NCBI GenBank assembly: GCA_035528755.1
Contig: DATKXZ010000023.1
Location: forward strand, 1 to 48,637
Source: Desulfobacteria bacterium
Lineage (GTDB): Archaea > Halobacteriota > Syntropharchaeia > Alkanophagales > Methanospirareceae
Reading direction: 5' to 3'
DNA: 48,637 bases
The stretch's first letter is position 1, and each line of letters opens with the position of its first letter. A program made the translations under genes and the position numbers. Below, piece after piece: positions 8,983 to 48,637 of this stretch. Under the pieces are notes generated by a model that did no database searches, was not told where the DNA came from, and saw only the letters and a program-made list of their open reading frames with translations.

Positions 8983-8994
8983 AGTATATAAAGC
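8983..8994 (-). promoter_or_regulatory. TATA-box-like element for the large surface protein gene.
   Basis: The minus strand reads GCTTTATATACT about 45 nt upstream of the ATG at 8940, followed by a leader carrying AGGAGGTGA. Confidence 0.45.
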
Positions 8995-9217
8995 TTCCGC
9001 CTTTTTCACCCCTTCCTTATGCTACCGTTACATCTCCCCCTTCGCCTCCTTTCCTTTCTGACGATAGAGAGAGTGAACATCTTTTCTCTTTGTCTATTTA
9101 TAAAGTTTGCGGTTTATCTCCCCGTATCATGGCTGTGGAAGCGGCGTATTGCTGAAGTCAGGACGCGACCCCAAAACATTTAACCTGACAGTGCCTACCT
9201 ACGTTAAAACCTGAGCT

Positions 9218-10201
9218 ATGATAGCTATAACCGGGCAAGTGCTCCGGATTCTGCCCGTCCGGGAAATAACTGACGGAGATACCACTAAACGGGTCGTTGA
9301 CCTCATTATCGCGGATGAATTCGATTACCAGCGCGTATCTCTCTGGGACGACAAAGCAGAACTCGTCATGACCGGTGAAATAAAATTGGGCGATGTGCTC
9401 TCGATAAAGAACGCTTCGAGCTCTGAACCGCAAGCGGCTGGCGAGAAGCGAGTTCATGCCGGACGATACGCGCGCGTATCAAAAACCGCTGCAGATATCG
9501 CGCCGTTACGGCATACATCAGCCACGAAACTCACCGTGCTGGCGGTTGCGCGACCCGAACAGGGGCAGGTCTGCATTGCGGGCATCGCTGATAACGGCGA
9601 CTGGATACGGCCACAGGGCGTTTACGAACGCGAGATGATTACCGCAGGTATGCCGCTGTTCAAAAACCTCTGCGTCTCCACGCTCTATCTCGATACGTGG
9701 CGGGGCAGACGGCCAAGGAAGGAAGATCGGTTCTTCGTTTACAGTACGGGTGTAGAGAAAGAGCTGAACGAAACGGCGCAGCAAGATTTTTTGGATCGGC
9801 ATGTTGATGCGGCCGTGGACGACGTGTTCAAACGCAGCGGCAGGAGTTTGGGCTTGATAAAGCCACTTACCATTATGCAGGTGTACGAGGAAAAAGCGCG
9901 CACGAGGAAGGGCGAGAAGCGCTATGAGCGTTACATTCGGTTCAACTTCAAAGACGCTTCGGGCAGAATGTATCGACACTGGTCGTGCCGCTGCAACGCC
10001 TTTTACAACGCCTGGAACGCCCTGAAGGAGAAGCATCGGTGGACATACGGCTGGCGAATGCTCCGATACCTGCGGAAGAACGAAACGTACCTTGCCATCG
10101 GCCTTACGCATTCCGATTACGGTGTGAGTGGGCTGGAATACGGCGCGTACCCGCTGATCGTTGGGGTGCACGTTGTGCGTCGAAATGCGTACGTAGAATG
10201 A
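9218..10201 (+). CDS. OB-fold (RPA/tRNA-anticodon-like) nucleic-acid-binding domain fused to an uncharacterised C-terminal domain.
   Basis: The N-terminal ~90 aa (ITGQVLRILPVREIT..GDTTKRVVDLIIADEFDYQRVSLWDDKAELVMTGEIKLGDVLSIKNA) follow the classic OB pattern. I cannot assign the C-terminal ~220 aa. Confidence 0.55.
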   Translation: MIAITGQVLRILPVREITDGDTTKRVVDLIIADEFDYQRVSLWDDKAELVMTGEIKLGDVLSIKNASSSEPQAAGEKRVHAGRYARVSKTAADIAPLRHTSATKLTVLAVARPEQGQVCIAGIADNGDWIRPQGVYEREMITAGMPLFKNLCVSTLYLDTWRGRRPRKEDRFFVYSTGVEKELNETAQQDFLDRHVDAAVDDVFKRSGRSLGLIKPLTIMQVYEEKARTRKGEKRYERYIRFNFKDASGRMYRHWSCRCNAFYNAWNALKEKHRWTYGWRMLRYLRKNETYLAIGLTHSDYGVSGLEYGAYPLIVGVHVVRRNAYVE

Positions 10202-10247
10202 AGAGCTCACTCATCCAATCCATCCATCCATCAAGGAAGGAAGGAGG

Positions 10248-10872
10248 GGCGCTATATATACCGCGATGGATTATTACCGAACCGCGTTTGCTCACGGGTT
10301 CCTCCCTTCTTATCTCGGCTGTCCGGTGATTATCGCAGACGGTTTGAGCGACGACGGTGTGCAGGTAACGGAGCACGTGGAAATAGCGAAGGGCATATAC
10401 GATAGCGATGCGATGCTCCTCGTTTCACATGCCACCGGCCATTGCGCTTCCTCGTTCGGTGGTGCGATAAAGAACGTCGCAATGGGCTGCGTGACGAAGA
10501 AGACCAAGTTTTATCAGCACGAAGTGACGAGACCGGTGCGTTACAATGGCCGGAAGGGATGTCCGGGAAGCTGCAAAAGAGGCTTGCGGAAGTCGCGTAT
10601 GCCGTCCTTAGAAATCTGCCGTATTCCCGATTCCTCTTCCTCAATTTCCTCGTGGATATAACGCCGTTCTGCGATTGCGGTGAATTCGCGCCGGGCCGGA
10701 GTATATAAGCCCGGACATTGGCGTTGTAGCCTCTAACGATATCGTCGCCGTTGATCTGGCCACCGTAGAACTAATAGGTAAGCACGTCTTCGCGGGCGAC
10801 CCGACGATCCAGATGCGTGAAGCTCATGCGCTGGGCCTGGGTGAGCTGGAATACAAGCTGGTCCGGGTTTGA
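10248..10872 (+). pseudogene. Remnant of a COG2768/DUF362-type Fe-S protein gene. It is 5'-truncated, internally deleted and frameshifted.
   Basis: Family-typical segments lie in three different frames: TAFAHGF...PVIIADGL.DDGV...LVSHATGH..SFGGAIKNVAMGC..KKTKFYQH (10266 frame), LNFLVDITPFCDC (10442 frame), then PDIGVVASNDIVAVDLATVELI...EAHALGLGELEYKLV ending in TGA at 10870-10872. The boundaries are approximate. Confidence 0.55.
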
Positions 10873-10899
10873 AACGACTGACTAGGTTGAAGAAACAGC

Positions 10900-11202
10900 T
10901 TACTCCACCTTGACCTTCTCCTTCTTCTCCTCTTCTCCGGTTTCGAGGTCTTTCTTGTAAGTCTCTAACAAGGATATTTCCTTCTCTATGACATTAGTTA
11001 TTGTTTGCAGTGCGCTTATCCGCAGGTCAATAAGACGAGAAGCGAACTCTGATGGTTTCGGTATATAATTCTCAAGAGATTTAGCGATGTCGCCAGTAAT
11101 ATCCGCAGCAACCTTCAAGGGTACCGCCGCCGTTCCCGCAAGGACTTTGATCGCCTTTACTAAATCCTCTTCCTCCCTACTCATTTTCTTTCCTTCTTCC
11201 AT
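10900..11202 (-). CDS. Small acidic coiled-coil protein of unknown function, overlapping the 3' end of the ArsA-like gene.
   Basis: 100-aa ORF with no TM segment and a Glu/Lys-rich C-terminus. It overlaps the end of the ArsA-like gene by 22 nt on the same strand. Confidence 0.5.
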   Translation of the reverse strand: MEEGKKMSREEEDLVKAIKVLAGTAAVPLKVAADITGDIAKSLENYIPKPSEFASRLIDLRISALQTITNVIEKEISLLETYKKDLETGEEEKKEKVKVE

Positions 11203-12383
11203 CGTTCATCAGTAAAGTATATATGCAAATCCGCATTTAAAAGTTTCGCCTTATCGAGCTTCATCAAGTGTGCAATCGCGGGAAGCGGGATGAAGTTTCT
11301 CGCCTCCCCGATATCGGTTGAAATAACGACCGATAAGTCTTCACCCATCCGTTCGACCTCACATACCTCCTTGTATTTGCCGGCAGTAGGTAACGGAACG
11401 ATTACTTCTAATCCTCCCTCTATCTCCTCCACCCTAATTGCCTTACCCTCGTAGTAGATCTGGGCCGGATCTTCACCGTTGAACAATTCATCACCGACTG
11501 CAGAAAGGAGTTCCAAACCTTTAACTTCCGATTGAAAGAGCCTGAGCTTCTTCAGGGGCAGTGGATGGAATGCTGATTCTGATTCTGCCAGATATTTCTC
11601 TTGCGCCGCTTTCCACTCCTTAAAATACGCATCACTCACGTCGTCCGGGATTATCTTGTTCATTACAGCAAGATCAACGTTGATATCGTAGAGGTTGGCA
11701 AGGAGGTACGTCCTTTTCAGGTTCTGTATACTGAACGCCTCGGGATTTGCAATCAGCCGTAAACTGGTGACTTTACGGTCCGCTATGATAGTTTTAAGCT
11801 TGCTGAGCACTTCAAGGAGCTTAATGTCCTGTTTTATCACTTCTTTGCCCGGTGTTGGTATCCCGACGATGGGCTCTACCAGTTTCGCGATATTAGCAAG
11901 CGGAGCTACCAATTTGATTACTTTCGATGCGGTGGATCCAAGTATTGTGGGCAGGTAAATGTTCTTAAGCGCGTCCCCGGATGGCACGGTGTCAAGCACA
12001 ATGACATCGTAGCTGTTCGATTCCACGTACTCAACCAGCTTTAACAGCGATACGAACTCGGTCATGTTCGGCAATGCGGCGATTTCGTATGCGAGCACTT
12101 CATCAACCCCTCGCGATTTGAATAGATTAACGACGTATTCCTGTATCACGCCGTAGGACTCGCGCGCCTCCCGTATAGGGTCTATTTGAACCGCCCAGAG
12201 CTTGTCCACGATTGCCGTCGGCCTATGGTGCACCACGGTTTCAAGCGCATCCGAGAGCGTATGCGCCGGATCGGAAGAGATAATCAGAGTCTTGTAGCCC
12301 CTCTCAGATAGTTTCAAGGCTGTAGCACAGGAGATAACAGATTTACCCGCGCCGCCTTTACCGGTATAAAAGATAACTCTCAT
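11181..12383 (-). CDS. ArsA/GET3-family P-loop ATPase with a C-terminal HSP20-like domain.
   Basis: Deviant Walker A FYTGKGGAGKSVISCATA, then IISSDPAHTLSDAL, and a C-terminal beta-rich domain (IRVEEIEGGLEVIVPLP...DLSVVIS...ADLHIYF). Confidence 0.8.
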   Translation of the reverse strand: MRVIFYTGKGGAGKSVISCATALKLSERGYKTLIISSDPAHTLSDALETVVHHRPTAIVDKLWAVQIDPIREARESYGVIQEYVVNLFKSRGVDEVLAYEIAALPNMTEFVSLLKLVEYVESNSYDVIVLDTVPSGDALKNIYLPTILGSTASKVIKLVAPLANIAKLVEPIVGIPTPGKEVIKQDIKLLEVLSKLKTIIADRKVTSLRLIANPEAFSIQNLKRTYLLANLYDINVDLAVMNKIIPDDVSDAYFKEWKAAQEKYLAESESAFHPLPLKKLRLFQSEVKGLELLSAVGDELFNGEDPAQIYYEGKAIRVEEIEGGLEVIVPLPTAGKYKEVCEVERMGEDLSVVISTDIGEARNFIPLPAIAHLMKLDKAKLLNADLHIYFTDERWKKERK

Positions 12384-15199: not shown

Positions 15200-16483
15200 T
15201 TGACAAAACGTTCTTTTATAAAATCAGAAAGGCTGATGCCGAACGTAATACGAGACCCGCTGCATGGATATATAGAACTGGACGAACTTGCCAGCGCGAT
15301 CATAGATACCGCGGAGATGCAGCGGCTGAGGCGGATCAGACAGCTCGGCTTCTCTTATCTGGTCTATCCGGGCGCGAATCATACGCGGTTCGAGCATTCG
15401 CTCGGCACGTACCATCTGATGAATGTCTTGCTTAACCGGCTCGAAGTAGCGAAAGAGGAAGAGCAGGAGCTGCTCGTTGCGGCATTGATCCATGACGTGG
15501 GCCATGGCCCGTATTCGCACGTGACCGAGCCGCTCATAAAGCGGCTGACGGGAAAAGGCCATGAAGATCTCGAATCCGTGCTCTTTGCAGAGGAGAACGT
15601 GCGGGAAAAAGATGCCGAAACCGCAGCAGCACCGACCATAGCAGAAGTCGTGGAAGCGCATCATTTGGATATACGGAAGATCCTAGGTTACATAAAAGGC
15701 GAGAAAACAGAAGGTGTGCGAAAGCGGGATCTTTCACGGATATTAAACGGCGAAATCGACGTGGACAAGATGGACTATTTGGTTAGAGATTCGTATTATA
15801 CCGGCGTGGCTTACGGTGTCGTTGACAATATACGGCTCATCCAAGGGCTGAATTTCTTCGATGACGAGCTCGTTCTCACGGAGAAAGGAGTGCTGCCGGC
15901 AGAATATCTGCTCTTCTCCCGGTTCCTGATGCACCCTACCGTTTATAATCACCATACCGGTCGGATAGCGCAATTGATGCTTTTGAATGCACTTGACGCG
16001 TTCATCGAATCCTCAGCAGAATCGAAAGACTATGCAGCCGCATTACGAACAATGGACGATTCCGAGATAAACATCGCATTAAGGAATGCCGGGGGCTATC
16101 CAAACGAGATGATAACGCGGCTAAACGAGCGGCGATTGTTCAAACGGGCGATATACACAAACGTAAGCGAGCTGGATGCGAGTGCAGCAGAAGGTTTACG
16201 TGACGCACGACGGATGCAAGAAGTAGTAGCGGACATAAGCAAGCGCGCGGGCGTTGATAAGAAATATGTCTTACTGGATTATCAAAAGCCAAAAGGCAGG
16301 GAGTTAGAAGAAGGTGCGGCAAGGGTGGTTATCGGGAACGAGTTCAGGAGTCTGCGCGATGTGTCATCGCTCGTTGCCATGCTCAGTCGCGAATTCGAGC
16401 GGAATTATAAAATCGGGGTTTATACGCCGGAAGAACATAGAGCAAAAGTGAAAAAGGCTGCCGAAGAGATCTTGTGGAAGTGA
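15200..16483 (+). CDS. HD-domain metal-dependent phosphohydrolase (dNTP triphosphohydrolase/SAMHD1-like).
   Basis: Contains IRDPLHGYIEL, RLRRIRQLG, RFEHSLGT, HDVGHGPYSH and DVDKMDYLVRDSYYTG. The track start is TTG at 15200; the ATG at 15236 is more likely. Confidence 0.85.
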   Translation: MTKRSFIKSERLMPNVIRDPLHGYIELDELASAIIDTAEMQRLRRIRQLGFSYLVYPGANHTRFEHSLGTYHLMNVLLNRLEVAKEEEQELLVAALIHDVGHGPYSHVTEPLIKRLTGKGHEDLESVLFAEENVREKDAETAAAPTIAEVVEAHHLDIRKILGYIKGEKTEGVRKRDLSRILNGEIDVDKMDYLVRDSYYTGVAYGVVDNIRLIQGLNFFDDELVLTEKGVLPAEYLLFSRFLMHPTVYNHHTGRIAQLMLLNALDAFIESSAESKDYAAALRTMDDSEINIALRNAGGYPNEMITRLNERRLFKRAIYTNVSELDASAAEGLRDARRMQEVVADISKRAGVDKKYVLLDYQKPKGRELEEGAARVVIGNEFRSLRDVSSLVAMLSREFERNYKIGVYTPEEHRAKVKKAAEEILWK

Positions 16484-16540
16484 AAAAGTTATGTCCAGAT
16501 ATAAAAATCACAAAGTGTTGCAATACATGAGGATGTAGAA

Positions 16541-17428
16541 ATGTATAAAAGTTTCAAAATAATAGATGATTTTGTTAAAGAGATATACGGTTTTAATTTA
16601 ATTGGAGAACCAATTAATCATGATATTTCAAAAATAAAGGAGTTAAGAAAAGCTCATGAGACTATAAAAGAGATAACACAAAGGAAAAGAAAACCCTATT
16701 CAAATGAATTTATCAAATACGTGTATCCTCTATTAGAAATTTCATTGCAGTGGTCTGAGTTAAAGAAAGAAGGGAGTATAACTGAATATTTTTTAGAAAA
16801 ATGCAAGCAAAGAGTTAGAACTCCAAACAACTTTTATGGCACCATATTCGAGATAGATATGGCCTCTAGGTGTATTTTATCAAATTGGGATATTAAATTT
16901 TCAGAAGATTGCACTAAAGAAGGGAGGCAAATAGATTTTGTATTTTATAAACGTGATAATCATTGTAAAGTGATTGGTGTAGAATGTCATTCAAAAAGAA
17001 ATACACGTAATCTCACAATCCAAAAGATTAACAGAGCTATTAATGATAAGGCAAAGAAGTTTGAACAGGAATTTATAAATAAATTAGGCTTTAATCTAGA
17101 TGAGAAGTTGTTAATTATTGATATAACGACAGCTAACTATTCTTCGCCTAAGATTTTGGAAGATTTAGATAAAACCGAAATGAGTGGTAAATTAGACGCA
17201 GTAATTTTCACTTGGAGAGAAGATAAAATAGATGGCGAAAATCATAGTTTAGCAGTAAAGTATAAAGTCATTGGTGATTGTGATAAGAAATATTTTTCAA
17301 CAACATATGCCGCAGAACTTCGTAAAGGTCCCGTTTTCTTTGTGAGAAAATATATCGAGCCTGAACCTTGTGTTATCAAAGTAGAACCTGAAGAAAGAAC
17401 TCATAGGATTGGAAAGCAGAAGAGATAA
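16541..17428 (+). CDS. AT-rich orphan protein with a weak restriction-endonuclease-like (PD-(D/E)xK-like) motif pattern.
   Basis: 295-aa ORF, visibly AT-richer than its neighbours. FEIDM...QIDFVFY...VIGVECHSK is only suggestive of a nuclease core. Confidence 0.5.
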   Translation: MYKSFKIIDDFVKEIYGFNLIGEPINHDISKIKELRKAHETIKEITQRKRKPYSNEFIKYVYPLLEISLQWSELKKEGSITEYFLEKCKQRVRTPNNFYGTIFEIDMASRCILSNWDIKFSEDCTKEGRQIDFVFYKRDNHCKVIGVECHSKRNTRNLTIQKINRAINDKAKKFEQEFINKLGFNLDEKLLIIDITTANYSSPKILEDLDKTEMSGKLDAVIFTWREDKIDGENHSLAVKYKVIGDCDKKYFSTTYAAELRKGPVFFVRKYIEPEPCVIKVEPEERTHRIGKQKR

Positions 17429-25746: not shown

Positions 25747-25774
25747 GTTCTTGAATTATACCATAAACTCTTAT

Positions 25775-26122
25775 TTAAGTTTTCTTCTTTATACGTTCTA
25801 ACTGCTCGTCCCAATACTCGTCCATCGCTTTTGATTCTTCGGAATCCTCGAATACAAGCTCGGTTTCTTCCGCTTTCGAGATAACACCGATGTAATGCCA
25901 CATAATACTCTGCCATTCGTTCTCGGTCAGCCCCCGACCAATCGCCTCTTCGATAACTTCACGCCTCAGCACAAGTCTCTCTTCGCCCCGTATCCGGATC
26001 AGCATACCGAAGCAGACGAAAGTCGCATTGCTATCCTCGTTATCTTTACACAATGCTCTTGCGGCAAGCACGTTTGGCGGGATCGCATCAAGAAAAACGC
26101 TTACCATCTTTAGTTCCTCCAT
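25775..26122 (-). CDS. Hypothetical small acidic protein.
   Basis: 115-aa ORF. It overlaps the 3' end of the radical SAM gene by 35 nt; an internal ATG at 26107 reduces the overlap. Confidence 0.4.
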   Translation of the reverse strand: MEELKMVSVFLDAIPPNVLAARALCKDNEDSNATFVCFGMLIRIRGEERLVLRREVIEEAIGRGLTENEWQSIMWHYIGVISKAEETELVFEDSEESKAMDEYWDEQLERIKKKT

Positions 26123-26867
26123 AAATCACTTCTTCACCAGCTTCTCTGGTTCTAATTCTCACTTCTTTCAGGTGCGCGGTTTGATAAGCACCGAAAGCGA
26201 GTCCTTTCAGCTCCTCGTGGCTAAACGCGTCAGCTCCTCTTATCACTCCTTCTGGAACGAGTTCCGGTCGTCCCTGTTGTATGACAAATGGGCTGTCTGC
26301 GGCACCCGCCTCTTCGAATTCCACTGCGATCCGTTTCACTTCCTCCAAGCCAACGAAATTTTTGAAGACCGTTGTTACTATTTCGAGATCAATATCCGAA
26401 CGAATGCAAACCTCAAGTGTGCTTTTCACTCGCTCTGCCACACCCGAAGCTCTTGCTATGCCCTCATAAAGCTTCTCATCTGCCAGTGGCGCCTTAATGT
26501 CAAGGAAGATCTTATCGATGAGGTTTTTCTTGAGCATTGATTCGACAACTGAGGGATAAAACCCGCAGGTCTGCGCCGCAACGAGCAGCGCGTGCTTCTT
26601 GGCAAATCGCGCAATGGCTTCTACTGCGTGTGGTTGCATGAACGGTTCGCCGCCCGAGAGCACTACCGCGTCGATAAAATCTTTGCTCTTGGTTATCTCC
26701 GCCTCTATCTCTTCCGCGTCAACAGAGTTTGCCTCTTCCAGGAGTTGAGAATTCTGGCAATAAATGCAGCGGAGCGGGCAGCCACTGAGAAATATCACCA
26801 TCGCGGCTTTTCCGCGCCAGTCAATGGTAGAGAAGGAGACGATCCCGCCAAGGTTTACGGTTGCCAT
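26088..26867 (-). CDS. Radical SAM activating enzyme (NrdG/PflA-like activase family).
   Basis: Reads GGIVSFSTIDWRGKAAMVIFLSGCPLRCIYCQN (CxxxCxxC) ...VVLSGGEP. Confidence 0.8.
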   Translation of the reverse strand: MATVNLGGIVSFSTIDWRGKAAMVIFLSGCPLRCIYCQNSQLLEEANSVDAEEIEAEITKSKDFIDAVVLSGGEPFMQPHAVEAIARFAKKHALLVAAQTCGFYPSVVESMLKKNLIDKIFLDIKAPLADEKLYEGIARASGVAERVKSTLEVCIRSDIDLEIVTTVFKNFVGLEEVKRIAVEFEEAGAADSPFVIQQGRPELVPEGVIRGADAFSHEELKGLAFGAYQTAHLKEVRIRTREAGEEVIYGGTKDGKRFS

Positions 26868-26888
26868 ACGTTAGTTAGAGTTAGTTAG

Positions 26889-27935
26889 TCAGAAGTACTC
26901 GCCCACCAACTCGATCGCACGTGCAACGAGTTCCGCGCATTTGTCAAGGTCTTGCAAGCTTAACGACTCCACGGGCGTGTGGATATACCGAGTCGGGATG
27001 CTTATGATGCCGGTTGGTATGCCGCTTTTCGTGAGATGTATTATGCTCGCGTCGGTATTGCCGCCATCCGCCACGCTGAGCTGGTATTCGATGTTGCAAC
27101 GAGCTGCGGTCTCTTTCAGCCAAGTCAGTATCGAAGGCGGCGTTATAATGCCACGACCGGAAGCGTCGGAAACGGTAATTACCGGGCCTTTGCCTACTTC
27201 TACCGGTGCATCCTTCTTCTCCATTCCCGGGTGCCCGCCAGCTACGTCAACGTCGGTCGCAATTGCCACGTCAGGACTGAGCGCATACGCGGTAGTTCGC
27301 GCTCCTTTCAGCCCTACCTCTTCCTGCACTGTTCCTACTGCGTAGACCTCGAATTCCGTTTTTGTCCGTTTCAGTGCCTCTATCATCACGGCAACGCCTG
27401 CACGGTTGTCAAGGGCCTTGCAAGAAGCTCTGTCATTCCCGAGACTTACAAAGTGCCGGTCGATGGTGACCGGCGTTCCGATGGATATCCCCATCTGCTC
27501 CACTTCTTCTCTGCTGCGAGCGCCCACATCGATGAACATGTCTTCCGTTTTGATTACCTTCTCGCGCTCCTCCTTCTTCATTACATGCGGTGGCTTCGAG
27601 CCGATAACGCCGTACAAACCGCCTCCCTCCGCGTGCACGATCACCCGCTGATTGAGCAGCGTTTGAGCGAACCAGCCGCCTATGGTCGAGAACGTAATGA
27701 ACCCCTCGTCATTTATATACTTCACCATAAGTCCGATCTCATCGATATGCGCAGCAATCATAACAGAGGGTTTCTTACCGTGCTTCGTGGCTATCAGATT
27801 CCCTAACCGGTCGATTGTTATTTCGTCCACATACTCTTCTAACTCGGCCTCGATGATCGCCCTTATCTCGCCTTCGTAGCCCGAAAGGCCATGTGCCTCT
27901 GCCAGTTTCTTCAGCAGTTCTTTCAGTTCAGACAT
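26889..27935 (-). CDS. M42-family aminopeptidase (FrvX/'endoglucanase'-like).
   Basis: Reads GLSGYEGE...IAAHIDEIG...LDNRAG...VQEEVGL+GA...AIATDV. The start is moved to the ATG at 27935 because the track start (27977) overlaps the tRNA. Confidence 0.85.
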   Translation of the reverse strand: MSELKELLKKLAEAHGLSGYEGEIRAIIEAELEEYVDEITIDRLGNLIATKHGKKPSVMIAAHIDEIGLMVKYINDEGFITFSTIGGWFAQTLLNQRVIVHAEGGGLYGVIGSKPPHVMKKEEREKVIKTEDMFIDVGARSREEVEQMGISIGTPVTIDRHFVSLGNDRASCKALDNRAGVAVMIEALKRTKTEFEVYAVGTVQEEVGLKGARTTAYALSPDVAIATDVDVAGGHPGMEKKDAPVEVGKGPVITVSDASGRGIITPPSILTWLKETAARCNIEYQLSVADGGNTDASIIHLTKSGIPTGIISIPTRYIHTPVESLSLQDLDKCAELVARAIELVGEYF

Positions 27936-27944
27936 TTTGAAAAA

Positions 27945-28066
27945 TCCCGCCTCCCGGATTTGAACCGGGGACAGCACGGTATCCGCGCGCGGTAATAAGA
28001 TCTTCGGGAGGTGATCTAAAACGCCACACTACAGCCGCGCACTCTTCCAGTCTGAGTTAAGGCGGG
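27945..28066 (-). tRNA. tRNA-Tyr (anticodon GTA) with a ~48-nt intron at the canonical 37/38 position.
   Basis: Manual fold:
- acceptor CCCGCCT/AGGCGGG
- D arm ACTC-AGACTGGAA-GAGT
- anticodon stem CGCGG/CCGTG, loop CT-GTA-G[intron 27981-28028]A
- T arm CCCGG-TTCAAAT-CCGGG
- discriminator A, followed by TTTTT
The mature length is 74 nt. Confidence 0.85.
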
Positions 28067-28088
28067 ATGTTAGATAGATATATGGCGG

Positions 28089-28100
28089 TTAAATATAAAT
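28089..28100 (-). promoter_or_regulatory. TATA box for tRNA-Tyr.
   Basis: The minus strand reads ATTTATATTTAA, 23-34 nt upstream of the tRNA 5' end. Confidence 0.5.
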
Positions 28101-28163
28101 GTAGTGAAGTCAGTCCGTGGCAGTGCCGAGTTGCACACCCGGTGTAAACTTCCAATTGGTTTC

Positions 28164-29495
28164 TTAGCTGCGTGGTAGTTCGGTCAACAATACAACATCC
28201 ACCGGTTCCCCTTCTTCTATTATCTCCTTACCTTTTTCCATGAATAGGTAGCCATCGGCTTTTGACAGCGTTGTGATCGCGCCCGAGCCGGTGAGGATAG
28301 GATAAGCGAGGAATGCCGCGTCTTCCGCCTTTTCCGCCGGAGTGAGAGTGACAAGCACGTATTCGTTTCGGCCTTTATCAGAGAAGATTCGCATCGCAGC
28401 CTTTGCTTTTATTCCTTTTCCCGCTCTTCTCTTTGCGTCCTCATAATCCCGGGAGAGCCCTGATAGCACGCGAAGCAGCGGCGCGACGAACAGGTTGAAG
28501 GTGACTAATGCGGACGTCGGATTCCCGGGCAAGCCGAAGAAAGGCGTTTCGTGAATTGATCCGAAGATGAAGGGCTTTCCTGGTTTGATGTCAACGCCGT
28601 GTACGAGTATCTCGCCGCGCTCTTCTACTACCTTTGGCAGCAGGTCACCAACGCCGGCAGAGGTCCCTCCTGATGCAATAATAACGTCAACGCCCTTCTC
28701 TAACGGCTCCCTTAACTTCCCTGATAGCTCCTCGATAGTGTCACGTGCAATCCCGAGGAAATACGGTGTGCAGCCGCATTCACGGACCGAATCGCTGAGT
28801 GCCCGGGTATTAACGTCATATATCTTCGCGGGTTCGAGCGTTTCACCAGGCGCTGTGAGCTCGTTGCCCGTGGACATGAGCGCGACCATCGGCTTTCTAC
28901 GGACCATAACTTCGTTGAGACCGCACGCAGCCAGGACTCCGGTATCACGCGGTGTGAGCGTCGTGCCGCTCCGTATTAGTTGCTCTCCTCGCTTTATATC
29001 AGAGCCCGCACGCATGATATTCTCGCCAGGAGCGACGGGTTTGTAGATCTTTACCCTCGTTCGCTCTTCTCCTTCTATAACCTCGGTATACTCGGCGGTG
29101 TTCTCTACTTTTACCGTTGCGTCCGCGCCTTTGGGCAGCGGTGCACCGGTTGATATGCCACTACAATAGCCTGGCTCTACGGACTGTGACGGCAACTCGC
29201 CCGCAAAGATTAACCCGGTTACAATCAAGGAAGCGGGATTATCCTCATCGGCATAGAAGGTGTCTGAAGCTACAACTGCGTAGCCGTCCATGAGTGCTCG
29301 ATCAAACGGAGGAACATTAAGCGCTGAGAAGACGTCGGCAGCCGCAACTCTACCGAGCGCCTCGGCTACGTTCACCTTCTCCACCGATGCCTCTTCTGTT
29401 TGTGCGCGTGCCGTTACTACTTCTGCGGCAACGCGCGCGATTATCGCGTCTACTTCCCGCTTCTCGGTTATCTCTAAGAACTGCTCCCCCATCAA
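28164..29495 (-). CDS. moeA: Molybdopterin molybdenumtransferase MoeA.
   Basis: Reads PPFDRALMDGYAV...G...ISTGAP.P.GADA...MSTGNEL...IYD.N...IASGGTSAG..D. Confidence 0.88.
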   Translation of the reverse strand: MMGEQFLEITEKREVDAIIARVAAEVVTARAQTEEASVEKVNVAEALGRVAAADVFSALNVPPFDRALMDGYAVVASDTFYADEDNPASLIVTGLIFAGELPSQSVEPGYCSGISTGAPLPKGADATVKVENTAEYTEVIEGEERTRVKIYKPVAPGENIMRAGSDIKRGEQLIRSGTTLTPRDTGVLAACGLNEVMVRRKPMVALMSTGNELTAPGETLEPAKIYDVNTRALSDSVRECGCTPYFLGIARDTIEELSGKLREPLEKGVDVIIASGGTSAGVGDLLPKVVEERGEILVHGVDIKPGKPFIFGSIHETPFFGLPGNPTSALVTFNLFVAPLLRVLSGLSRDYEDAKRRAGKGIKAKAAMRIFSDKGRNEYVLVTLTPAEKAEDAAFLAYPILTGSGAITTLSKADGYLFMEKGKEIIEEGEPVDVVLLTELPRS

Positions 29496-29541
29496 ACTCT
29501 CTTAAAGAGAAAGGTTGATCGAAGAAAAAAGCTTCGGTCTC

Positions 29542-30333
29542 TTATTCCGATCTCTCCTTGGTCTCTTCTTTATCCTTGGAACGTGCCTCAGAGCGGTATC
29601 CCAGCGCCTCGAGCATCTCTATTGGGAACGGAATGATAACTGTGGTGGCCTTCTCCTCCGTCGCCTCCTTTATCGTTTGGAGCGTTCGAATGAACATCCC
29701 GCCTTTTTCTTTTTGCAGGACGTTCGCAGCTTCTGCAATCTTCTTCGCCGCCTGGAACTCGGCATCTGCGGAGATAATTCGTGCTCTTTTATTCCGCTCT
29801 GCTTCTGCCTGTGCTGCCATTGCACGCTGCATCTCTTTTGGCAGTTCTACATCCTTTATCTCCACTGAAGAGACCTTTATGCCCCACGGATCTGTCGCTT
29901 CGTCTATTATGACCTGCAATCGTTTATTGATCTTGTCTCGCTCGGAGAGTATTTCGTCCAGCTCCGCCTGTCCTATCACACCTCTTATTGTGGTCAGAGC
30001 GACTTGCGAGGTGGCATACTGGTATTGCTCTACCTCGGTTACCGCCTTCTCGGGGTCAAGCACGCGGTAATAAACGACCGCGTTCACTTTCGCGGTGACA
30101 TTATCTTTGGTTATGACCTCTTGCGGCGGGATATCGAAAACAGACACACGCAAGTCTATCTTTACCATGGACTCGAAGAGGGGTATAATCAAGAACAACC
30201 CCGGGCCTCTCGCACCGACCAAACGCCCGAGCCTGAAGATGACACCTCGTTCGTATTCCTTCACTACCTTTATCGACGACGCTAATACAATCACTGCAAA
30301 AAATAAAACTCCAATTAGCCATTCAAAAGCCAT
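29542..30333 (-). CDS. SPFH-domain protein (stomatin/prohibitin family).
   Basis: N-terminal TM segment, then VKEYERGVIFRLGRL...QEVITKDNV...AVVYYRV, and a coiled-coil AAQAEAERNKRARII. Confidence 0.88.
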   Translation of the reverse strand: MAFEWLIGVLFFAVIVLASSIKVVKEYERGVIFRLGRLVGARGPGLFLIIPLFESMVKIDLRVSVFDIPPQEVITKDNVTAKVNAVVYYRVLDPEKAVTEVEQYQYATSQVALTTIRGVIGQAELDEILSERDKINKRLQVIIDEATDPWGIKVSSVEIKDVELPKEMQRAMAAQAEAERNKRARIISADAEFQAAKKIAEAANVLQKEKGGMFIRTLQTIKEATEEKATTVIIPFPIEMLEALGYRSEARSKDKEETKERSE

Positions 30334-34397: not shown

Positions 34398-34471
34398 TGG
34401 GGTCGGTGCGATTCGAACGCACGATCGGCGAGTCTGGAGCCCGCTGCCCTTCCGGACTAGGCCACGACCCC
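34398..34471 (-). tRNA. tRNA-Trp (anticodon CCA), intron-less.
   Basis: Manual fold:
- acceptor GGGGTCG/CGACCCC
- D arm GCCT-AGTCCGGAA-GGGC
- anticodon stem GCGGG/CTCGC, loop CT-CCA-GA
- T arm GTGCG-TTCGAAT-CGCAC
- discriminator A, with a T6 run downstream
The length is 74 nt. Confidence 0.88.
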
Positions 34472-44188: not shown

Positions 44189-45184
44189 ATGATATTTCTG
44201 GTAATGGGTGCCGGAGCGCTTGGTGGGCAGCGCATTTGGCGGTATGTTAGCCAGTGCAGGACATGACGTTACGCTCATTGGCAGAGAGCGATACATGCGG
44301 CCTATAAGATAAGAGATCGCGGCCTCAGAATCACCGGGATATGTATGGGGCACGCACGTCGTCAAAGACCTACGAGCGTTGTCAGAACGCGAAGGAGTGG
44401 ATTACGAACCTGAGGTGATTTTTTTTGTTAACCACAAAGTCGTTTGATACAAAACCTGCGATGACGGCGCTGCAGCCGCTTATTTCTGACGCTACGGATT
44501 CGGTAGTTATCAGCTTGCAGAATGGGATAGGCAATGAAGAGCGGATAGCACGGTACGTTGGATAGGCCCGTACACTTGGGCGGGATGTGCTGTGCATAAC
44601 CGGTTTTGAGATACCGCAGCCGGGCACGGTGGAAGTGACCGTTGCTGCGGATACCACGAAAATCGGTGAACTCAACAACAAAATCACGCCGCGATTGCGA
44701 GAAATTGTTACGGTTTTCAACGAGGCGGGGATACCCTCAAATGCCGTGGATAATATTCAGATGTACATCTAGGGTAAAGCCTTCCTAGTACAGTGCCGCG
44801 TTAAATCCACTCAGTGCGATCTCCCGAGTGCCTTATGGCGAATTAGCGCAGCCCCAGGCCTTTGCGATTGTTGAGGCTTTAGTAATGCACGAGGCTTTTG
44901 CCGTTGCCGATGCGGAGAACGTAACACTATTTTGGGAGCGGGCAGAAGAATACCTGGAGTATCTACGACGTAAACATATACCTGATACTGGAAAGCACCA
45001 CTCCTCAATGCTCAATGACATCGAACGGGGAAGAAAGACCGAGATAGATTTTGTAAACGGAAATTTTGTAGAGCTTGGGAAGAAGCATCAGATACCGACA
45101 CCCGTAAACGATACCATCGTCAGATTGATTAAATTTTTGGAAGCACGGGGGGGGGAGATAAACGATAGGACCGCCAAGTCATAG
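44189..45184 (+). pseudogene. panE: 2-dehydropantoate 2-reductase (PanE/ApbA) pseudogene with several frameshifts and two in-frame TAG codons.
   Basis: Family segments are scattered over all three frames: MIFLVMGAGALGG | SAFGGMLASAGHDVTLIGRE | DRGLRITGI | TTKSFDTKPAMTALQPLISDATDSVVISLQNGIGNEERIARYVG*ARTLGG...IQMYI*GKAF | VPYGELAQPQAF...KHHSSMLNDIERGRKTEIDFVNG...PTPVND. The second TAG replaces the conserved Trp. Confidence 0.85.
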
Positions 45185-45923: not shown

Positions 45924-45960
45924 AATTAGAACTCAAGTAGGCCAAAATCCCGAGCGCGGG

Positions 45961-46899
45961 CTATTTAACAACGGCCTCATCTATTAGCGTATCGAATTTG
46001 AGCTTCTTATCCCATCCCGCACGCTCAAAGATGTTCATGAACCCCACGCCGATGACTTTCGGTTTCTTCTCTCCGGATAGCTCTTCAATCAAACGAGTGA
46101 CATCCTCTGGCGAGCATCCAAACTTTGGCAGCGCCAGCCCGCCAAGCACCACAATCGCATCAGGATTTTTCGGATCCGCCTTTTCATCTACAACGCTATA
46201 CCCTATGTGTTCTATCTCCTTTATCCGCCTTGCCTCATTCGCATCAGCTCTCGGCACATATAACATCTTAAAACCCCGATCTCTTACCGTGTAAGCGAGC
46301 AATTCGATAAATGGTGTGCATACTGCTACAGAACCTGTAAACACCACTTTAGACCCATAGTTTAGGTCTGCTATGCTATTTCTAAATGCTCCCGTGAAAT
46401 CTACTATCCCGTTTCTCTCTCTCATTTCCTCCCCGGTTATCGCACGTGTGTTTATATCCTCGATTATACTGGAGAAGACAAGAACCATAGGATTTAATTT
46501 CTCATATTCGTTTATGAGCTCACAGCAAGTGTTTTTCACTTTTGCGTTCTCTATCTTATCCATGTTTTCCGAGAGCAGTGCAATCACCGGTTTTATGTTA
46601 TCCTCGAAAAACCGCCTCGAAAACGTGCCAAAAGCATCAGTTAAAGAGGTATTAACAAAATAACGCTTATCCCCACCCATAGAGGTTTCATTAATCATAT
46701 TCGCCATCTTCAATTTCTGCACGTTTATAGTGATCAACCCGCTGCTGTAGCCCGTGCCTTCCTCTATTTCCTTCTGTGATACGGGACAGGAATGGAGCAG
46801 TATCCAGCCCCAGACACGCCACACGGATTCTCCTAATTCCCACTGCCCCCCTATTTTCGATAACGCGTCTAATACTTCTGGCATTACAACTTCGCTCAT
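45961..46899 (-). CDS. Winged-helix (MarR/GbsR-like) N-terminal domain fused to an uncharacterised alpha/beta C-terminal domain.
   Basis: The N-terminus VWRVWGWILLHSCPVSQKEIEEGTGYSSGLITINVQKLKMANMI fits a wHTH. I cannot assign the C-terminal ~170 aa. Confidence 0.55.
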   Translation of the reverse strand: MSEVVMPEVLDALSKIGGQWELGESVWRVWGWILLHSCPVSQKEIEEGTGYSSGLITINVQKLKMANMINETSMGGDKRYFVNTSLTDAFGTFSRRFFEDNIKPVIALLSENMDKIENAKVKNTCCELINEYEKLNPMVLVFSSIIEDINTRAITGEEMRERNGIVDFTGAFRNSIADLNYGSKVVFTGSVAVCTPFIELLAYTVRDRGFKMLYVPRADANEARRIKEIEHIGYSVVDEKADPKNPDAIVVLGGLALPKFGCSPEDVTRLIEELSGEKKPKVIGVGFMNIFERAGWDKKLKFDTLIDEAVVK

Positions 46900-46992
46900 T
46901 TTTTCACCTTTTCATTGTTATTACTGAATTTGATTTAAATAGTGTGTAAATGTTATATCCTCAATCGCGTTTGTGGATGCAATTCACGTATC

Positions 46993-48348
46993 TCATCGAG
47001 AGGCCCAATCATGGAGGTTTTTCTGGTTGTTCATATTTTGTTTACAATAAGGGCAGAATTTCCACGATGCCGCAATCGAGGAATTACAGTTCGGGCATTT
47101 TTTGACCCCTATATCTGATCCACAGTGAGGGCATACATTCCAGTTCTGATCGAGATTGCTACCGCAGGAAGGGCATTTGTAAACGCTGCCATTATTATTC
47201 GTTATGCCGACTCGTGCTAAATACTCTTTGATTCGCTCATCTATCTCCTCTTTCTGTGGTGGCTTCTCGAGTACCTGTTTAATGCTCAAGGCAGGATATG
47301 CCTTCACATACGCCGCTTTTAGCCGGTTTACCGTTGCTCTCATGTACGCACTATCATACGGAAGCTTATGTCCCAGCATCTCTTCTACGTAATCCGGAGG
47401 GGCACCTTGATCCCTGAGGATAGTGGAGAACGAGGCACGTAAGGCATGTATTCCCGCAGTGTTTATTGTTCTCCCTTTTTCTTCCTCACTTATCAGCCCT
47501 GCCTTCAGTGCTACTGCTTGCATAGCTCTATTAATGCCACTTTCATAAGCCCTCACACGCTCTTTCCTGCGGCGGTTGGATTCTGATATGAAGAGAGGAG
47601 AATCTTTCTTTATGTCTTCGGGATCCAGATATCGCGACCCCTTTTTCCTGAGCTTGATATAACAGCTTAATGAATCTACCGCGTCTTCCCCTATGAAGGT
47701 ATAATATTCTATCCCCTCTTTCTCTCTCATGAGATGTAACGTAAGTGGAACTTCACCCTTTTCTAAGCCCTCAGCCACATCTCCATAGTTCAGCGAGATA
47801 AGTTCTTTCATCCCCAGCCCGCCCTGGAATGCGCACAGGATGATCGTTCTGTCCCGTAATCTCTCACAGACCGCTATCATCCGCTTCACATCTTGTGCCG
47901 ATAGGAACTTTCTGAAGTTTTCTTTTAGTTTCCGTGGTGTTGGCAAGTGCAAATTGCCAACGGGAATCTCGTTCTCTTTATAAAATACCCGTACGTCCTC
48001 AATGATCCGCCCCGCGGATCGTGGCGCCAGTCCCCGTTCTCCTTTTCTCCTCCCTCCTTTTTCGGGTATTACATAGTCAGTCCGGAGCCAGTCATAGAAC
48101 TCTTTTAACTTCAGCTCTGTCTCCTTCACGCTTACTCGTTTCGCTTCTTCTATCAGTTCGCCAGGGCTTCGCTCTCTCCAATTGCAGTATAACTTTATCA
48201 GTCGTGCGCGGTTTTCCCTGATTTTCCTGCCTCTTCCGACGATGGTTACCCGTACCTCTTTGATGTCGCTAAAAGCATAATTGTTTCTTTCGAGTTCTGC
48301 TTCTACCCGGTCCACTTCAATCGCTTTCTCAGTCACGTTGCTCATCAC
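46993..48348 (-). CDS. Tyrosine recombinase/integrase with an N-terminal SAM-like domain and a C-terminal double zinc ribbon.
   Basis: Catalytic-domain motifs: [14 protein letters not shown] (Arg-region context), HALRASFST (HxxR), [14 protein letters not shown] (His...Tyr). The C-terminus reads CPSCGS..x..CPHCGS...CPNCNS..x..CPYCKQ. GTG at 48348 or ATG at 48345. Confidence 0.85.
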
Positions 48349-48382
48349 CTATATGGATATCTGCCTATATAAAAAGGATTGG

Positions 48383-48637
48383 GTGAACAATGCTGCGATG
48401 CAGCAAATCTGGGATGATATGAGAAGGACCGTCATGCTCGGATTGGATGACGCGCACGCGATTCTGGAGACGAGATTGAGTAAGGAAGTCACACCAGATA
48501 CCATAAACAATTACATGGAAGTGGTGAACCACGCGTTACCTGGTGGTGCAACCATCCAGGAGCACATGGTGGAGACCAAGCCCGCATTAGTCTCGGATTC
48601 GTACGCGAAGTTATTCACGGGCGATGACGATCTTGCG
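48383..48637 (+). pseudogene. mcrA: Methyl-coenzyme M reductase alpha subunit (mcrA) sequence lacking its first ~90 codons. It runs off the window end.
   Basis: Translation reads [85 protein letters not shown]. This matches the conserved McrA stretch [16 protein letters not shown]...GKEVTPETI...[22 protein letters not shown]...KVFTGDD. Upstream in-frame codons ([10 protein letters not shown]) show no McrA similarity. Confidence 0.8.

Follow-up and report, generated by a model that had tools for sequence, protein, structure and literature searches.

The right end of the window, as we call the whole stretch of 48,637 nucleotides analyzed here, raises the question of why an mcrA sequence lacking its beginning should lie directly against a divergent recombinase gene. 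MCR makes or consumes nearly all biological methane, and mcrA is the standard marker for counting and classification. The sequence-only reading of this DNA had suggested that the central gene of methane metabolism was cut here, either by an integrative element for which mcrA serves as attachment site or in the relic of a second mcr operon. Having compared the locus with its counterparts in related genomes, we consider it probable that the window ends in one part of a shufflon-like invertible cassette, which would swap mcrA 3' ends between a silent arm and an intact mcrBGA partner by means of a dedicated recombinase.

The truncated mcrA copy and its junction

The McrA segment that had been read from the plus strand up to the window end was confirmed by a profile match and by alignment with solved chains. 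Residues 10-95 of the translation of 48353-48637(+) corresponded to positions 89-174 of the 269 positions of the Pfam model MCR_alpha_N (E 4.5e-46), and the same residues aligned to 3sqg_A, the MCR alpha chain of ANME-1, at residues 95-180 (E 3e-44), while alignment to the remaining solved McrA chains began at residues 87-106. Since these alignments start so far into the solved chains, the motif normally sits about 90 residues from the N-terminus, as the sequence-only reading had stated for characterized McrA proteins. The start of MCR_alpha_N (the N-terminal ~90 residues) is absent from the window copy, and the codons upstream in frame consist of promoter and antisense-recombinase sequence. 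Alignment with intact ANME-1 mcrA (L085) placed the homology boundary between 48379 and 48380, before the TGG codon of Trp94/95 (48380-48382) and just ahead of the VNN codons. The similarity is thus as abrupt as had been described, but it ends one codon earlier than at VNN itself. Tblastn searches of the 48.6 kb window found no McrA N-terminus, mcrG or mcrB encoded anywhere in it, in agreement with the earlier statement that the first ~90 codons and the upstream mcrG are missing.

Although the window terminates inside the copy, at codon ~180, the remainder could be followed in relatives. On contig L169, from the window's lineage, protein P0193 represents a complete truncated copy of 477 aa (PF02745 and PF02249) that reaches the natural stop and whose first 95 aa are identical to the window copy. 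The rest of MCR_alpha_N and the MCR_alpha C-terminal domain, open to the stop, were also present in L011 and L015, and the truncated reading frame was unbroken at every locus where the entire copy had been assembled. The window's lineage possesses a full-length McrA as well (P0180 on L170, 563 aa). Over the stretch shared by P0193 and P0180, 48 of 1410 nt differ, with 41 synonymous and 4 non-synonymous codon differences. These two proteins were recovered by a protein search with the McrA of L104 as query; the 95-aa McrA fragment used as query returned four partial proteins only, which led to L003, L004 and L085.

Table 1. Coordinates of the features discussed in the window and in the related contig L104.
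Feature	Coordinates	Strand	Basis or remark
Window, 5'-truncated second mcrA copy, first 258 nt (codons ~94/95 to ~180)	48380..48637	+	Pfam, 3sqg_A, intact-mcrA alignment
Window, conserved junction GCCTATATAAAAAGGATTGG; TATA-like box plus homology boundary; candidate recombination hot-spot or site	48363..48382	.	motif recurrence, exchange start, inversion breakpoint
Window, tyrosine recombinase, 450 aa; N-terminal extension, catalytic domain, C-terminal double zinc ribbon	46993..48345 (alternative GTG 48348)	-	PF00589, DZR + Zn_ribbon
Window, 312-aa protein; N-terminal domain and C-terminal DUF2124/COG4090	45961..46899	-	PF09897 E 4.4e-41
L104, mcrB	685-2004		same contig as truncated mcrA
L104, mcrG	2021-2857		same contig as truncated mcrA
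L104, mcrA, full-length	2876-4567	+
L104, spacer, ~4 kb			CoA-disulfide-reductase-like gene and atwA (MCR activation component A2)
L104, truncated mcrA	8550-9956	-
L104, recombinase	10001-11359	+	followed by DUF2124 gene

The interval of about 35 bp between the two genes carries the TATA-like sequence TTTTTATATA at 48366-48375 on the minus strand, ~20-30 nt upstream of the recombinase start codon. A spacing of ~20-30 nt between TATA box and start fits a leaderless archaeal promoter, and the TATA-like box that had been assigned to a divergent integrase starting at 48348/48345 was borne out, the gene being a PF00589 recombinase. The junction, GCCTRTATAAAAAGGATTGG directly followed by RTNAAYAATGC, was found on more than 30 independent ANME-1 (Methanophagales) contigs. 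This tally comprises ~17 metagenome contigs and 14 contigs of GTDB species-representative genomes, among which L014 has a flank 100% identical to that of L003. The ~20-nt motif directly precedes the truncated copy in L003-L018 and L086-L104, and the junction occurred in every ANME-1 lineage sampled, with no patchiness in its distribution. The distance between the recombinase start and the boundary amounts to 35-45 bp in more than 30 loci, and in all loci the truncated copy begins exactly where the repeat described below begins.

Like most of the related contigs, the window breaks off within mcrA, which is what a mis-assembled join of recombinase flank and mcrA at a contig end would look like. 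Many of them end 127-145 nt past the boundary, a length close to the largest k-mer sizes commonly used by such assemblers; such ends are expected if the same sequence sits in two contexts. However, the junction recurs in independent assemblies made from different samples with different assemblers, among recombinases of 76-100% identity, and L011, L015, L087, L092, L104 and L169 read through it with several kb on either side. An assembly chimera can thus practically be dismissed. Around the boundary, the two putative sites showed no shared motif on their outer sides (CTGCAC before TGG in one, AAGGAT before TGG in the other), no convincing dyad symmetry was detected at it, and nucleotide conservation inside the arm did not exceed the level imposed by the protein.

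We also considered whether the copy might be expressed independently as a short McrA with its own role, from the GTG/ATG after the Trp codon or from an in-frame ATG further upstream. The frame is open to its natural stop and the arm sequence is constrained at the protein level; moreover, an in-frame ATG lies nine codons upstream in the window and in L104, and an ATG stands straight after TGG in the THS genomes. Nevertheless, the start codon is not conserved (the post-TGG codon is GTG, ATA, ATC or ATG by lineage), in L011 the stretch from the recombinase gene to the arm contains no ATG in frame, and the copy has no apparent promoter of its own, the one TATA box that is conserved being placed for the recombinase. 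Since, in addition, every solved MCR alpha chain has the ~94 residues that are missing here, independent expression appears very unlikely. A LYKKDW-like N-terminus, which the sequence-only reading had envisaged as a possible genuine McrA start in close relatives, was indeed seen, but in these same truncated copies, read into the integrase promoter, and it is thus no genuine start of McrA.

Locus architecture in related ANME-1 genomes

The complete arrangement can be read on contig L104, from the nearest relative with a full assembly of the locus (Table 1). Its two arms, 3161-4566 and 8551-9956, are 1406 nt long, 94% complementary and inverted, and the sequence at the window end corresponds to the outer end of one arm of this inverted repeat of ~1.4-1.55 kb, in which the intact mcrA supplies the other arm with its 3' part. 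The arms of L106/L096 measure 1555 nt and are 98.3% identical, and those of the THS genomes are identical over at least 107 nt bar one base. The right flank of L104 is syntenic with the window (DUF2124, DUF373, HDAC, L10e, argG, aroA). As assembled in these contigs, the inverted-repeat architecture is conserved across ANME-1.

This type of locus was published in March 2026 in ISME Commun (PMC13109099). ANME-1-GMV and other ANME-1 MAGs were described there as carrying a second, isolated 5'-truncated mcrA by XerD-like tyrosine integrases and COG4090/DUF2124, with the intact mcrBGA on the same scaffold and the opposite strand, and the scaffold coordinates in Table S8 of that study agree with this (PMC13109099). 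The authors read the architecture as the product of a duplication that a mobile element or virus had probably brought about, with no known function, and reported that the full-length and truncated mcrA of one genome cluster together (PMC13109099). Two of their examples are L011 (WJOV01000082.1) and L015 (RXIE01000134.1) of our set. The window adds another lineage with the same locus type, and its recombinase shares 76-85% identity with those of the other lineages. New relative to that study are the nucleotide-exact junction, the inverted-repeat and flip reading, the two orientations, the swapping of arms in near-identical strains, and the selection analyses.

These comparisons change the picture of a central methane gene that has been cut. 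Intact mcrBGA lies ~4 kb beyond the truncated copy in L104, and P0180 is full-length in the window's own lineage. The idea of a relic of a second mcr operon survives in part: there is a second copy, limited to mcrA codons ~95 to stop, but it is not decaying, since its frame is intact and its differences are mostly synonymous. An extra 5'-truncated mcrA was found in every ANME-1 lineage recovered and, if this is general, mcrA copy counts, amplicon diversity and MAG completeness calls would be affected. Contigs break at the arm, and many MAGs seem to hold the truncated mcrA only.

An active integrative element inserted in mcrA at codon ~94 as attB, with the mcrA 5' part and mcrG at its far end, would place an integrase-family gene exactly at the break, as is observed, and archaeal integrases normally lie beside their own att site (PMC8371274). 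We regard such an element as highly improbable. Neither an mcrA 5' part nor mcrG nor a junction repeat, and hence no second att copy, is present in the 48 kb to the left; the genes there (aIF5B, DnaJ, MoeA, ThiD/N, argG, aroA, L10e) are housekeeping genes syntenic with L104, and no mobile-element genes were found near the recombinase. Furthermore, the partner mcrA sequence is inverted rather than direct, the junction is common to all the ANME-1 lineages sampled, and an intact mcrA coexists in the window's lineage. The sole tRNA gene in the window, tRNA-Trp at 34398-34471, is 12.5 kb from the recombinase and therefore does not point to a tRNA-type att. The nifD element with XisA and the sigK skin element likewise present a key enzyme gene that is seemingly interrupted and has a recombinase gene immediately within the interruption. 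In those systems, excision between direct repeats restores one split gene, whereas at mcrA the repeats are inverted, the intact gene coexists and no 5' fragment lies at the element end; a nifD/XisA-like excision was accordingly rejected.

The recombinase and its neighbors

The recombinase matched PF00589 with 51.3 bits against a cutoff of 27.1 (E 1.5e-13) and PHROG integrase families at E 3e-16, and its closest solved relative was P. abyssi XerA (4a8e, E 7e-11). Identity with archaeal XerA, the chromosome-dimer resolvase, was rejected: NF040815 scored 69 bits against a cutoff of 220, and the protein has 450 aa with an N-terminal extension and double zinc ribbon, versus ~280 aa and no extra domains. 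It belongs to an ANME-1-specific orthologue group, 76-85% identical, which is always found beside the truncated mcrA. The identical protein occurs on six contigs from separate assemblies; an exact look-up gave no match with the GTG start, while the ATG-start version was matched. With dN/dS of 0.13-0.18 at dS 0.37-0.8 and an ORF that is intact in all lineages, the recombinase is, as judged from these substitution ratios, under purifying selection.

Alignment with XerA 4a8e and 13 relatives showed K209, H300, R303, H326 and Y334 to be invariant. In all ANME-1 orthologues, Gly178 takes the place of XerA R135 (Arg-I), with an invariant R164 nearby. Since glycine stands at the canonical Arg-I position, recombinase activity is not assured. 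Active recombinases that lack the canonical Arg-I exist, IntDOT being one example. The wider integrase family comprises 43 representatives at E<=1e-30, in which this position is mostly D, S or G, and R in P0008. Phage and plasmid collections yielded no close relatives, only integrases of ~25% identity such as psiM2, and a mobile-element origin of the recombinase was thus not traceable in them. The paralogous recombinases P0159 and P0160 adjoin MCP/PAS genes, and no inverted repeats were found within 10 kb of them, so the inverton idea could not be extended to these paralogues.

The DUF2124 gene lies downstream of the recombinase gene in almost all loci. The similarity of the window to L169 ends at window position 45945, which leaves DUF2124, recombinase and arm as the module common to both. 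The N-terminal domain of the DUF2124 protein gave only a sub-threshold match to MarR_2 (E 0.047); speculatively, the protein may be an accessory or regulatory factor.

Inversion, arm exchange and their interpretation

Evidence on rearrangement came from closely related contigs. The flanks of L087 are 95.6% identical to those of L104, and both contigs belong to one species-level group. A single 4.9 kb block of L104, 3161-8059 (arm plus spacer), matches L087 5682-814 in reverse, and the inverted block begins exactly at the outer arm boundary. The contigs thus display both block orientations within one species-level group. L086, whose flank is 99.9% identical to that of L104, carries beside its recombinase the arm that is fused to the mcrA 5' part in L104 (100% over 98 nt); against the silent arm of L104 it has 11 differences, and L006 carries the same arrangement as L104 in this comparison. 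Alternative arms beside the recombinase were seen in four more lineages with flanks 98-100% identical, and there the mismatch density jumps +8 to +23 nt past the boundary. Compared with L002, the window has no mismatch over 1512 nt to the left of the boundary, but 2 within the 258-nt arm. The evidence for orientation and arm swapping consists of contig comparison only, and short-read assemblers can mis-thread long near-identical inverted repeats, so that mosaic arms, e.g. L006 versus L104, could be partly artefactual. Mis-threading cannot, however, account for the sequences in L086 and L087 that span the junction between the recombinase and arm alpha.

The two arms of a locus differ by 4-23 amino acids (1-5% of residues), all conservative, and arm-to-arm mismatches are patchy. 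Between arms alpha and beta of L104, dN/dS was 0.135, with 23 of 71 differing codons non-synonymous. By these counts, in which most differences are synonymous, both arms are under constraint at the protein level.

The arrangement can be understood in terms of an invertible cassette as follows. The window would end in a silent, promoter-less mcrA copy (codons ~95 to stop) that forms one inverted-repeat arm, with the recombinase promoter making up the junction at its outer end. The partner arm would be the 3' part of the intact mcrA in the mcrBGA operon a few kb on, lying tail-to-tail with it across the spacer. The whole arm-spacer-arm block would be flipped by recombination that takes place at the outer boundary of the arm, the Trp94/95 codon, or adjacent to it. 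The silent arm would then join mcrBG-mcrA(1-94) and become expressed, while the previously expressed arm would be parked beside the recombinase. Homologous exchange and gene conversion within the arms may add mosaicism and keep the arms alike. The adjacent recombinase would be the catalyst of inversion, switching may proceed within populations at an appreciable rate, and the few amino-acid differences between arms may be physiologically relevant. An mcrA on/off switch was rejected, since in the geometry of L104 and L087 a flip of the block restores a full-length gene either way.

Gene-altering programmed inversions have been recognized by criteria that include the asymmetry of a 5'-less copy (PMC9881135). 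The ANME-1 loci conform to these hallmarks in that they present paired inverted coding sequences, a 5'-less copy that extends up to the repeat, an adjacent recombinase gene and intra-species variants. Gene conversion running to the end of homology, together with ordinary homologous inversion, could nevertheless give the same patterns with no recombinase involved. That ANME-1 archaea use a programmed, recombinase-catalyzed inversion to swap the 3' 83% of mcrA between expressed and silent states, in a block that also carries atwA, is a tentative proposal, which we regard as possible rather than probable.

The remaining alternative is a passive relic, essentially the hypothesis of PMC13109099: an ancient partial duplication brought about by a mobile element or virus would have left a dead copy that is overwritten by gene conversion and homologous flip-flop, with a recombinase uninvolved at this locus and kept for an unrelated reason. 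Besides the reading of the same architecture by those authors, the clustering of full-length and truncated copies of a genome (PMC13109099) speaks for it, as do the near-identity of the THS arms over 107 nt and the patchy inter-arm mismatches, which resemble conversion tracts. A 1.4 kb inverted repeat is also an ample substrate for RadA-type recombination, and the recombinase both lacks the canonical Arg-I and falls within a wider integrase family. However, neutral drift predicts many non-synonymous differences, whereas 4 of 45 and 23 of 71 differing codons were non-synonymous in the two arm pairs analyzed. The recombinase ORF has stayed intact at low dN/dS and abuts the arm exactly in more than 30 loci, and no mobile-element genes lie close by. 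Moreover, exchange begins 8-23 nt from the homology boundary in five lineages, and the L104/L087 breakpoint is at the boundary itself. Such a position is not easily reached by homologous crossovers, which depend on flanking homology. We therefore find the passive relic unlikely, though it retains appreciable weight, and continue with the invertible cassette.

Several known systems resemble such a cassette. Shufflons of the R64 type, in which Rci acts on PilV C-terminal segments, share the constant 5' gene part, the inverted promoter-less 3' segments and the adjacent tyrosine recombinase. Shufflon sfx sites are conserved on one side only, and the mcrA boundary, with its similarity on a single side, would be a parallel to this. 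Shufflons differ in the short length of their sfx sites (~19 bp), in having several segments and in serving a plasmid surface adhesin, whereas the mcrA locus has two 1.4 kb arms, a core catabolic enzyme and a place on an archaeal chromosome. No relationship between an archaeal recombinase and Rci appears in the network of a published review (PMC8371274). The hsdS invertons (S. pneumoniae ivr, PsrA/CreX) likewise combine a full operon, inverted 5'-truncated silent copies and a tyrosine recombinase beside them (PMC9881135, PMC4948785, PMC7096588). As at mcrA, the inverted repeats lie within coding sequence and variants occur within species, and longer repeats in such systems can also recombine without the recombinase; unlike mcrA, hsdS invertons are bacterial and swap target-recognition domains for specificity. 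The pTN3 integrase of Thermococcus is an archaeal tyrosine recombinase that brings about inversions between chromosomal segments identical over ~100 bp or more (PMC8371274). A similar action on the 1.4 kb mcrA arms is possible and would explain their mosaicism, but the pTN3 enzyme is plasmid-borne, 'suicidal' and active at many sites, while the mcrA recombinase is chromosomal, confined to a single locus, equipped with zinc ribbons and from a different sequence family.

The systematic survey of inversions explicitly left archaea out (PMC9881135), and the inversion targets reported in the studies consulted include no comparable metabolic enzyme (PMC9881135, PMC4948785, PMC7096588). If the cassette operates as proposed, it would be the first gene-altering inverton found in the literature for Archaea, and the first on a central methane-metabolism enzyme rather than a surface or specificity protein. 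Genome-encoded variation of this mode is known to date from surface and restriction-specificity genes of bacteria and has not been reported from the core metabolism of archaea. ANME-1 would then actively keep two versions of the catalytic subunit that can replace one another, whether to provide alternative isoforms or to have a template for repair within the genome, and populations could alternate between two McrA isoforms or repair and homogenize them. One organism with two MCR alpha versions is familiar from the MCR isoenzymes I and II (mcr/mrt) of Methanobacteriales and Methanococcales. Those are complete, separately transcribed operons with ~70% identity, whereas in ANME-1 only the 3' 83% of one subunit is doubled, at 94-99% identity, and the second arm, unlike mrt, would be expressible only after a DNA rearrangement.

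The truncated mcrA and its recombinase in the window

From position 48353 to the window end, the plus strand reads into McrA, ending FTGDDDLA. Residues 10-95 of this translated segment matched positions 89-174 of Pfam MCR_alpha_N (E 4.5e-46) and residues 95-180 of the ANME-1 MCR alpha chain 3sqg_A. Alignment against the intact ANME-1 mcrA of L085, a contig with mcrB-mcrG-mcrA used as the reference for the boundary, placed the start of homology at a Trp codon, TGG, at 48380-48382. The window nowhere encodes an McrA N-terminus, mcrG or mcrB, bearing out the sequence-only reading of an mcrA segment that lacks its 5' part, diverges from an integrase and has no mcrG upstream. That reading also took mcrA to have apparently been cut, which two contigs of the same lineage do not support. 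In L169, which shares 94.7% nucleotide identity with window 45945-48637, DUF2124 and the recombinase are accompanied by a complete truncated copy (P0193, 477 aa) whose first 95 residues are those of the window, and L170 encodes a full-length McrA (P0180, 563 aa). The central gene has therefore not been destroyed, and the window just ends 258 nt into a silent arm, the arm being the 3' part of mcrA from about codon 95 to the stop. The remainder of the window is ordinary chromosome (aIF5B, DnaJ, MoeA, ThiD/N, ArsA, argG, aroA, L10e, purF-like, HDAC, DUF373).

The product of the divergent gene (46993-48345, minus strand) is a tyrosine recombinase of 450 aa whose C-terminal part carries a double zinc ribbon. 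TTTTTATATA lies in the intergenic stretch about 20-30 nt upstream of its start, a spacing typical for a leaderless archaeal promoter. The best solved relative is Pyrococcus abyssi XerA (4a8e, E 7e-11), but the protein is not itself XerA, scoring 69 bits on NF040815, whose cutoff is 220. Among 1.84 billion representatives searched, the mcrA-linked orthologues formed one 50%-identity cluster, with the next relatives at most 43% identical, and no close relatives were found in phage and plasmid collections. Residues K209, H300, R303, H326 and Y334 are invariant. At the position of the canonical Arg-I, all orthologues have Gly178 and most members of the wider family also lack Arg, so that activity is plausible and catalysis putative. 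The dN/dS of 0.13-0.18 at dS 0.37-0.81 between lineages indicates that purifying selection acts on the recombinase.

Locus architecture and recurrence in ANME-1

An identical recombinase protein was present on six contigs of separate assemblies, ending 285-331 nt beyond the recombinase start. Partial proteins resembling the fragment led to L003 and L004, contigs of other Methanophagales MAGs with the same divergent recombinase (81-83% identical to the window's) and junction. Scans built on the alignment of these recombinases recovered 17 full-length relatives (76-85% identity) among GTDB species-representative genome contigs and about 20 among JGI metagenome contigs. Wherever upstream DNA was present, GCCTRTATAAAAAGGATTGG directly preceded RTNAAYAATGC..., the mcrA sequence from codon ~95 onward, and on eight contigs (L011, L015, L006, L087, L092, L096, L104, L169) the entire truncated gene could be read to its natural stop and beyond. 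From these sequence comparisons, we conclude that the junction is neither an artefact nor an insertion into a sole mcrA.

The full locus is seen in L104 (Ga0307378_10003659, 22.3 kb), whose recombinase is 84% identical to the window's and whose far flank is syntenic with the window. The 3' parts of its two mcrA copies pair as an inverted repeat (1406 nt, 94%; arms 3161-4566 and 8551-9956), and pairing extends ~50 nt past the stop codon.

Features of two related mcrA loci
Contig	Feature	Coordinates	Strand	Remark
L104	mcrB	685-2004	+	
L104	mcrG	2021-2857	+	
L104	full-length mcrA	2876-4567	+	
L104	CoA-disulfide-reductase-like gene	4806-6206	+	
L104	atwA	6388-8031	+	TIGR03269 (MCR component A2), 655 bits vs cutoff 517
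L104	truncated mcrA	8550-9956	-	
L104	recombinase	10001-11359	+	
L104	DUF2124 gene	11443-12381	+	
L087	mcrA 3' end	36-581	+	
L087	atwA	845-2485	-	
L087	reductase gene	2643-4025	-	
L087	truncated mcrA	4282-5682	-	
L087	recombinase	from 5727		

A paper of March 2026 describes this architecture (ISME Commun 6:ycag072, PMC13109099), so the raw observation was already known. In ANME-1-GMV, one scaffold carries a truncated mcrA (15712-17100, plus), with XerD-like integrase and COG4090 genes on its flanks, together with a full mcrA-mcrG-mcrB (25771-29651, minus); similar truncated copies were reported in other MAGs, L011 and L015 among them, and the authors proposed duplication mediated by a mobile element or virus, leaving function open (PMC13109099). 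Our analyses of arm exchange by inversion, selection and the recombinase go beyond that report (PMC13109099).

Probable arm exchange by inversion, and selection on the arms

L087 is 95.6% identical to L104 in its flanks and has the opposite spacer orientation. By BLASTN, L104 3161-8059, comprising the arm fused to the mcrA 5' end and the spacer, is one collinear 4.9 kb block against L087 5682-814, reversed, and this block begins exactly at the outer arm boundary. Consistently, the expressed arm of L104 is closer to the silent arm of L087 (95.5%) than to its own silent arm (93.6%). The recombinase-side flanks of L104, L006 and L086 are 99.9-100% identical over 2.4 kb; the arm beside the recombinase in L086 matches the arm fused to the mcrA 5' end in L104 (100% over 98 nt) and differs from the L104 silent arm at 11 positions, the first 8 nt from the boundary. 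A jump of this kind recurs in other lineages: L003/L092 had 4 flank mismatches (per 1300 nt) and 7 arm mismatches in the first 65 nt, and the corresponding counts were 6 and 5 in 189 for L004/L090, 4 and 18 in 690 for L096/L097, and 26 and 15 in 127 for L099/L101. L099 and L106 share an identical arm, which lies beside the recombinase in L099 and is fused to the mcrA 5' end in L106, and the window and L002 differ by just two mismatches in 1770 nt, both in the arm. Many contigs stop after 127-145 nt of the arm, a length near that of the largest k-mers commonly used by such assemblers. Breaks of this kind are expected where one arm sequence follows two different upstream contexts.

A homologous crossover cannot easily fall 8-23 nt from the homology boundary because homology is needed on both sides; the data are most simply explained if the boundary is the site of a break or of site-specific exchange. 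Mosaic arms show that internal homologous exchange or conversion occurs too, and part of the mosaicism could instead be an assembly artefact. Architecture and arm exchange are both visible at contig level, and the comparative evidence supports an invertible mcrA 3' cassette as a more specific mechanism. The locus is a conserved feature of ANME-1, and we consider it probable that its truncated mcrA is the silent arm of such a cassette; that the inversion is programmed and recombinase-catalysed is a more tentative proposal, somewhat short of an even chance. We infer catalysis by the adjoining recombinase, and any physiological pay-off.

Codon differences between arms are mainly synonymous (48 synonymous and 23 non-synonymous in L104, dN/dS 0.135; 41 and 4 in L169/L170), a pattern that fits arms each expressed part of the time. 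Were the silent copy drifting neutrally between conversions, many more replacements than those seen should result; the differences could also have been imported from other functional alleles. Independent translation of the truncated copy is unlikely because no start codon is conserved at its head.

Hallmarks for recognising bacterial gene-altering programmed inversions come from a survey that left out archaea (PMC9881135). The mcrA locus shares with such systems paired inverted coding parts, one copy without its 5' end up to the repeat, an adjoining recombinase and variants within a species. Shufflons and the hsdS invertons of phase-variable type I restriction systems are similar, but the mcrA locus is archaeal, targets a core catabolic enzyme, has 1.4 kb arms that are 94-99% identical, and has a zinc-ribbon recombinase without canonical Arg-I. 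We found no report of such an inversion system on mcrA in the literature; in archaea, the pTN3 integrase offers a precedent for inversion driven by a recombinase between long segments that are identical.

Variation around the locus

In the L104 flipping block (4806-8031), the reductase-like gene and atwA are co-directional with mcrBGA in one orientation and antisense in the other, so inversion might also alter their expression. A 100-nt direct repeat (4684-4783 and 5163-5262, 84%), a partial reductase-gene duplication directly after the mcrA arm end, has an equivalent in L087 and may be the scar of an earlier rearrangement at the inner arm boundary. In one lineage, the spacer holds a partial, internally deleted recombinase copy (L106 3154-3650), ~0.75 kb downstream of full-length mcrA, which shares 95-98% nucleotide identity with the real recombinase gene of L096.

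Besides the mcrA-linked enzyme, ANME-1 genomes carry at least two other zinc-ribbon tyrosine recombinases that share about 43% identity with it. Those of GCA_017883965.1, the MAG of L008 (L166 10001-11356; L167 9656-11311), are each divergently paired with a methyl-accepting-chemotaxis/PAS-type gene in modules that share ~85% identity; a search within 10 kb gave no inverted repeats. Some contigs with the ANME-1 locus (e.g. L006, L014) were deposited in MAGs labelled Bathyarchaeia, Syntrophoarchaeum, Halobacteria or Methanosarcinales; because the L014 flank is 100% identical to that of ANME-1 contig L003, errors of binning or naming seem to lie behind these labels.

Elsewhere in the window, a ketopantoate-reductase-like (ApbA_C) gene at 44400-45184 (plus), a region missing from syntenic L104, appears fragmented into several short ORFs (44425-44565, 44587-44772, 44828-45184) and is probably a pseudogene, and two neighbouring ORFs (4867-8955, minus, 1362 aa; 9218-10201, plus, 327 aa) matched no Pfam family at E<=1e-5. 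A split DUF2124 gene is seen in L011 (1151-1624 and 7141-7635), L003, L014, L092 and L095, with its N-terminal half adjoining the recombinase, the DUF2124 domain beyond the truncated mcrA and an atwA-like ABC ATPase on the recombinase side, which suggests further rearrangements around the locus. Just downstream of its truncated mcrA, L169 has a second, DUF2124-only paralogue (8724-9278, 184 aa; 83% nucleotide identity to window 45988-46431), in agreement with the published 'two COG4090 genes' (PMC13109099). Similarity between L169 1-4643 and the window upstream of 45945 ends right after the DUF2124 gene, beyond which L169 has DUF772 transposase, DsrE-like and Nitro_FeMo-Co genes and the window TPR-like and DUF373 genes; the module conserved between the two is DUF2124-recombinase-arm only.
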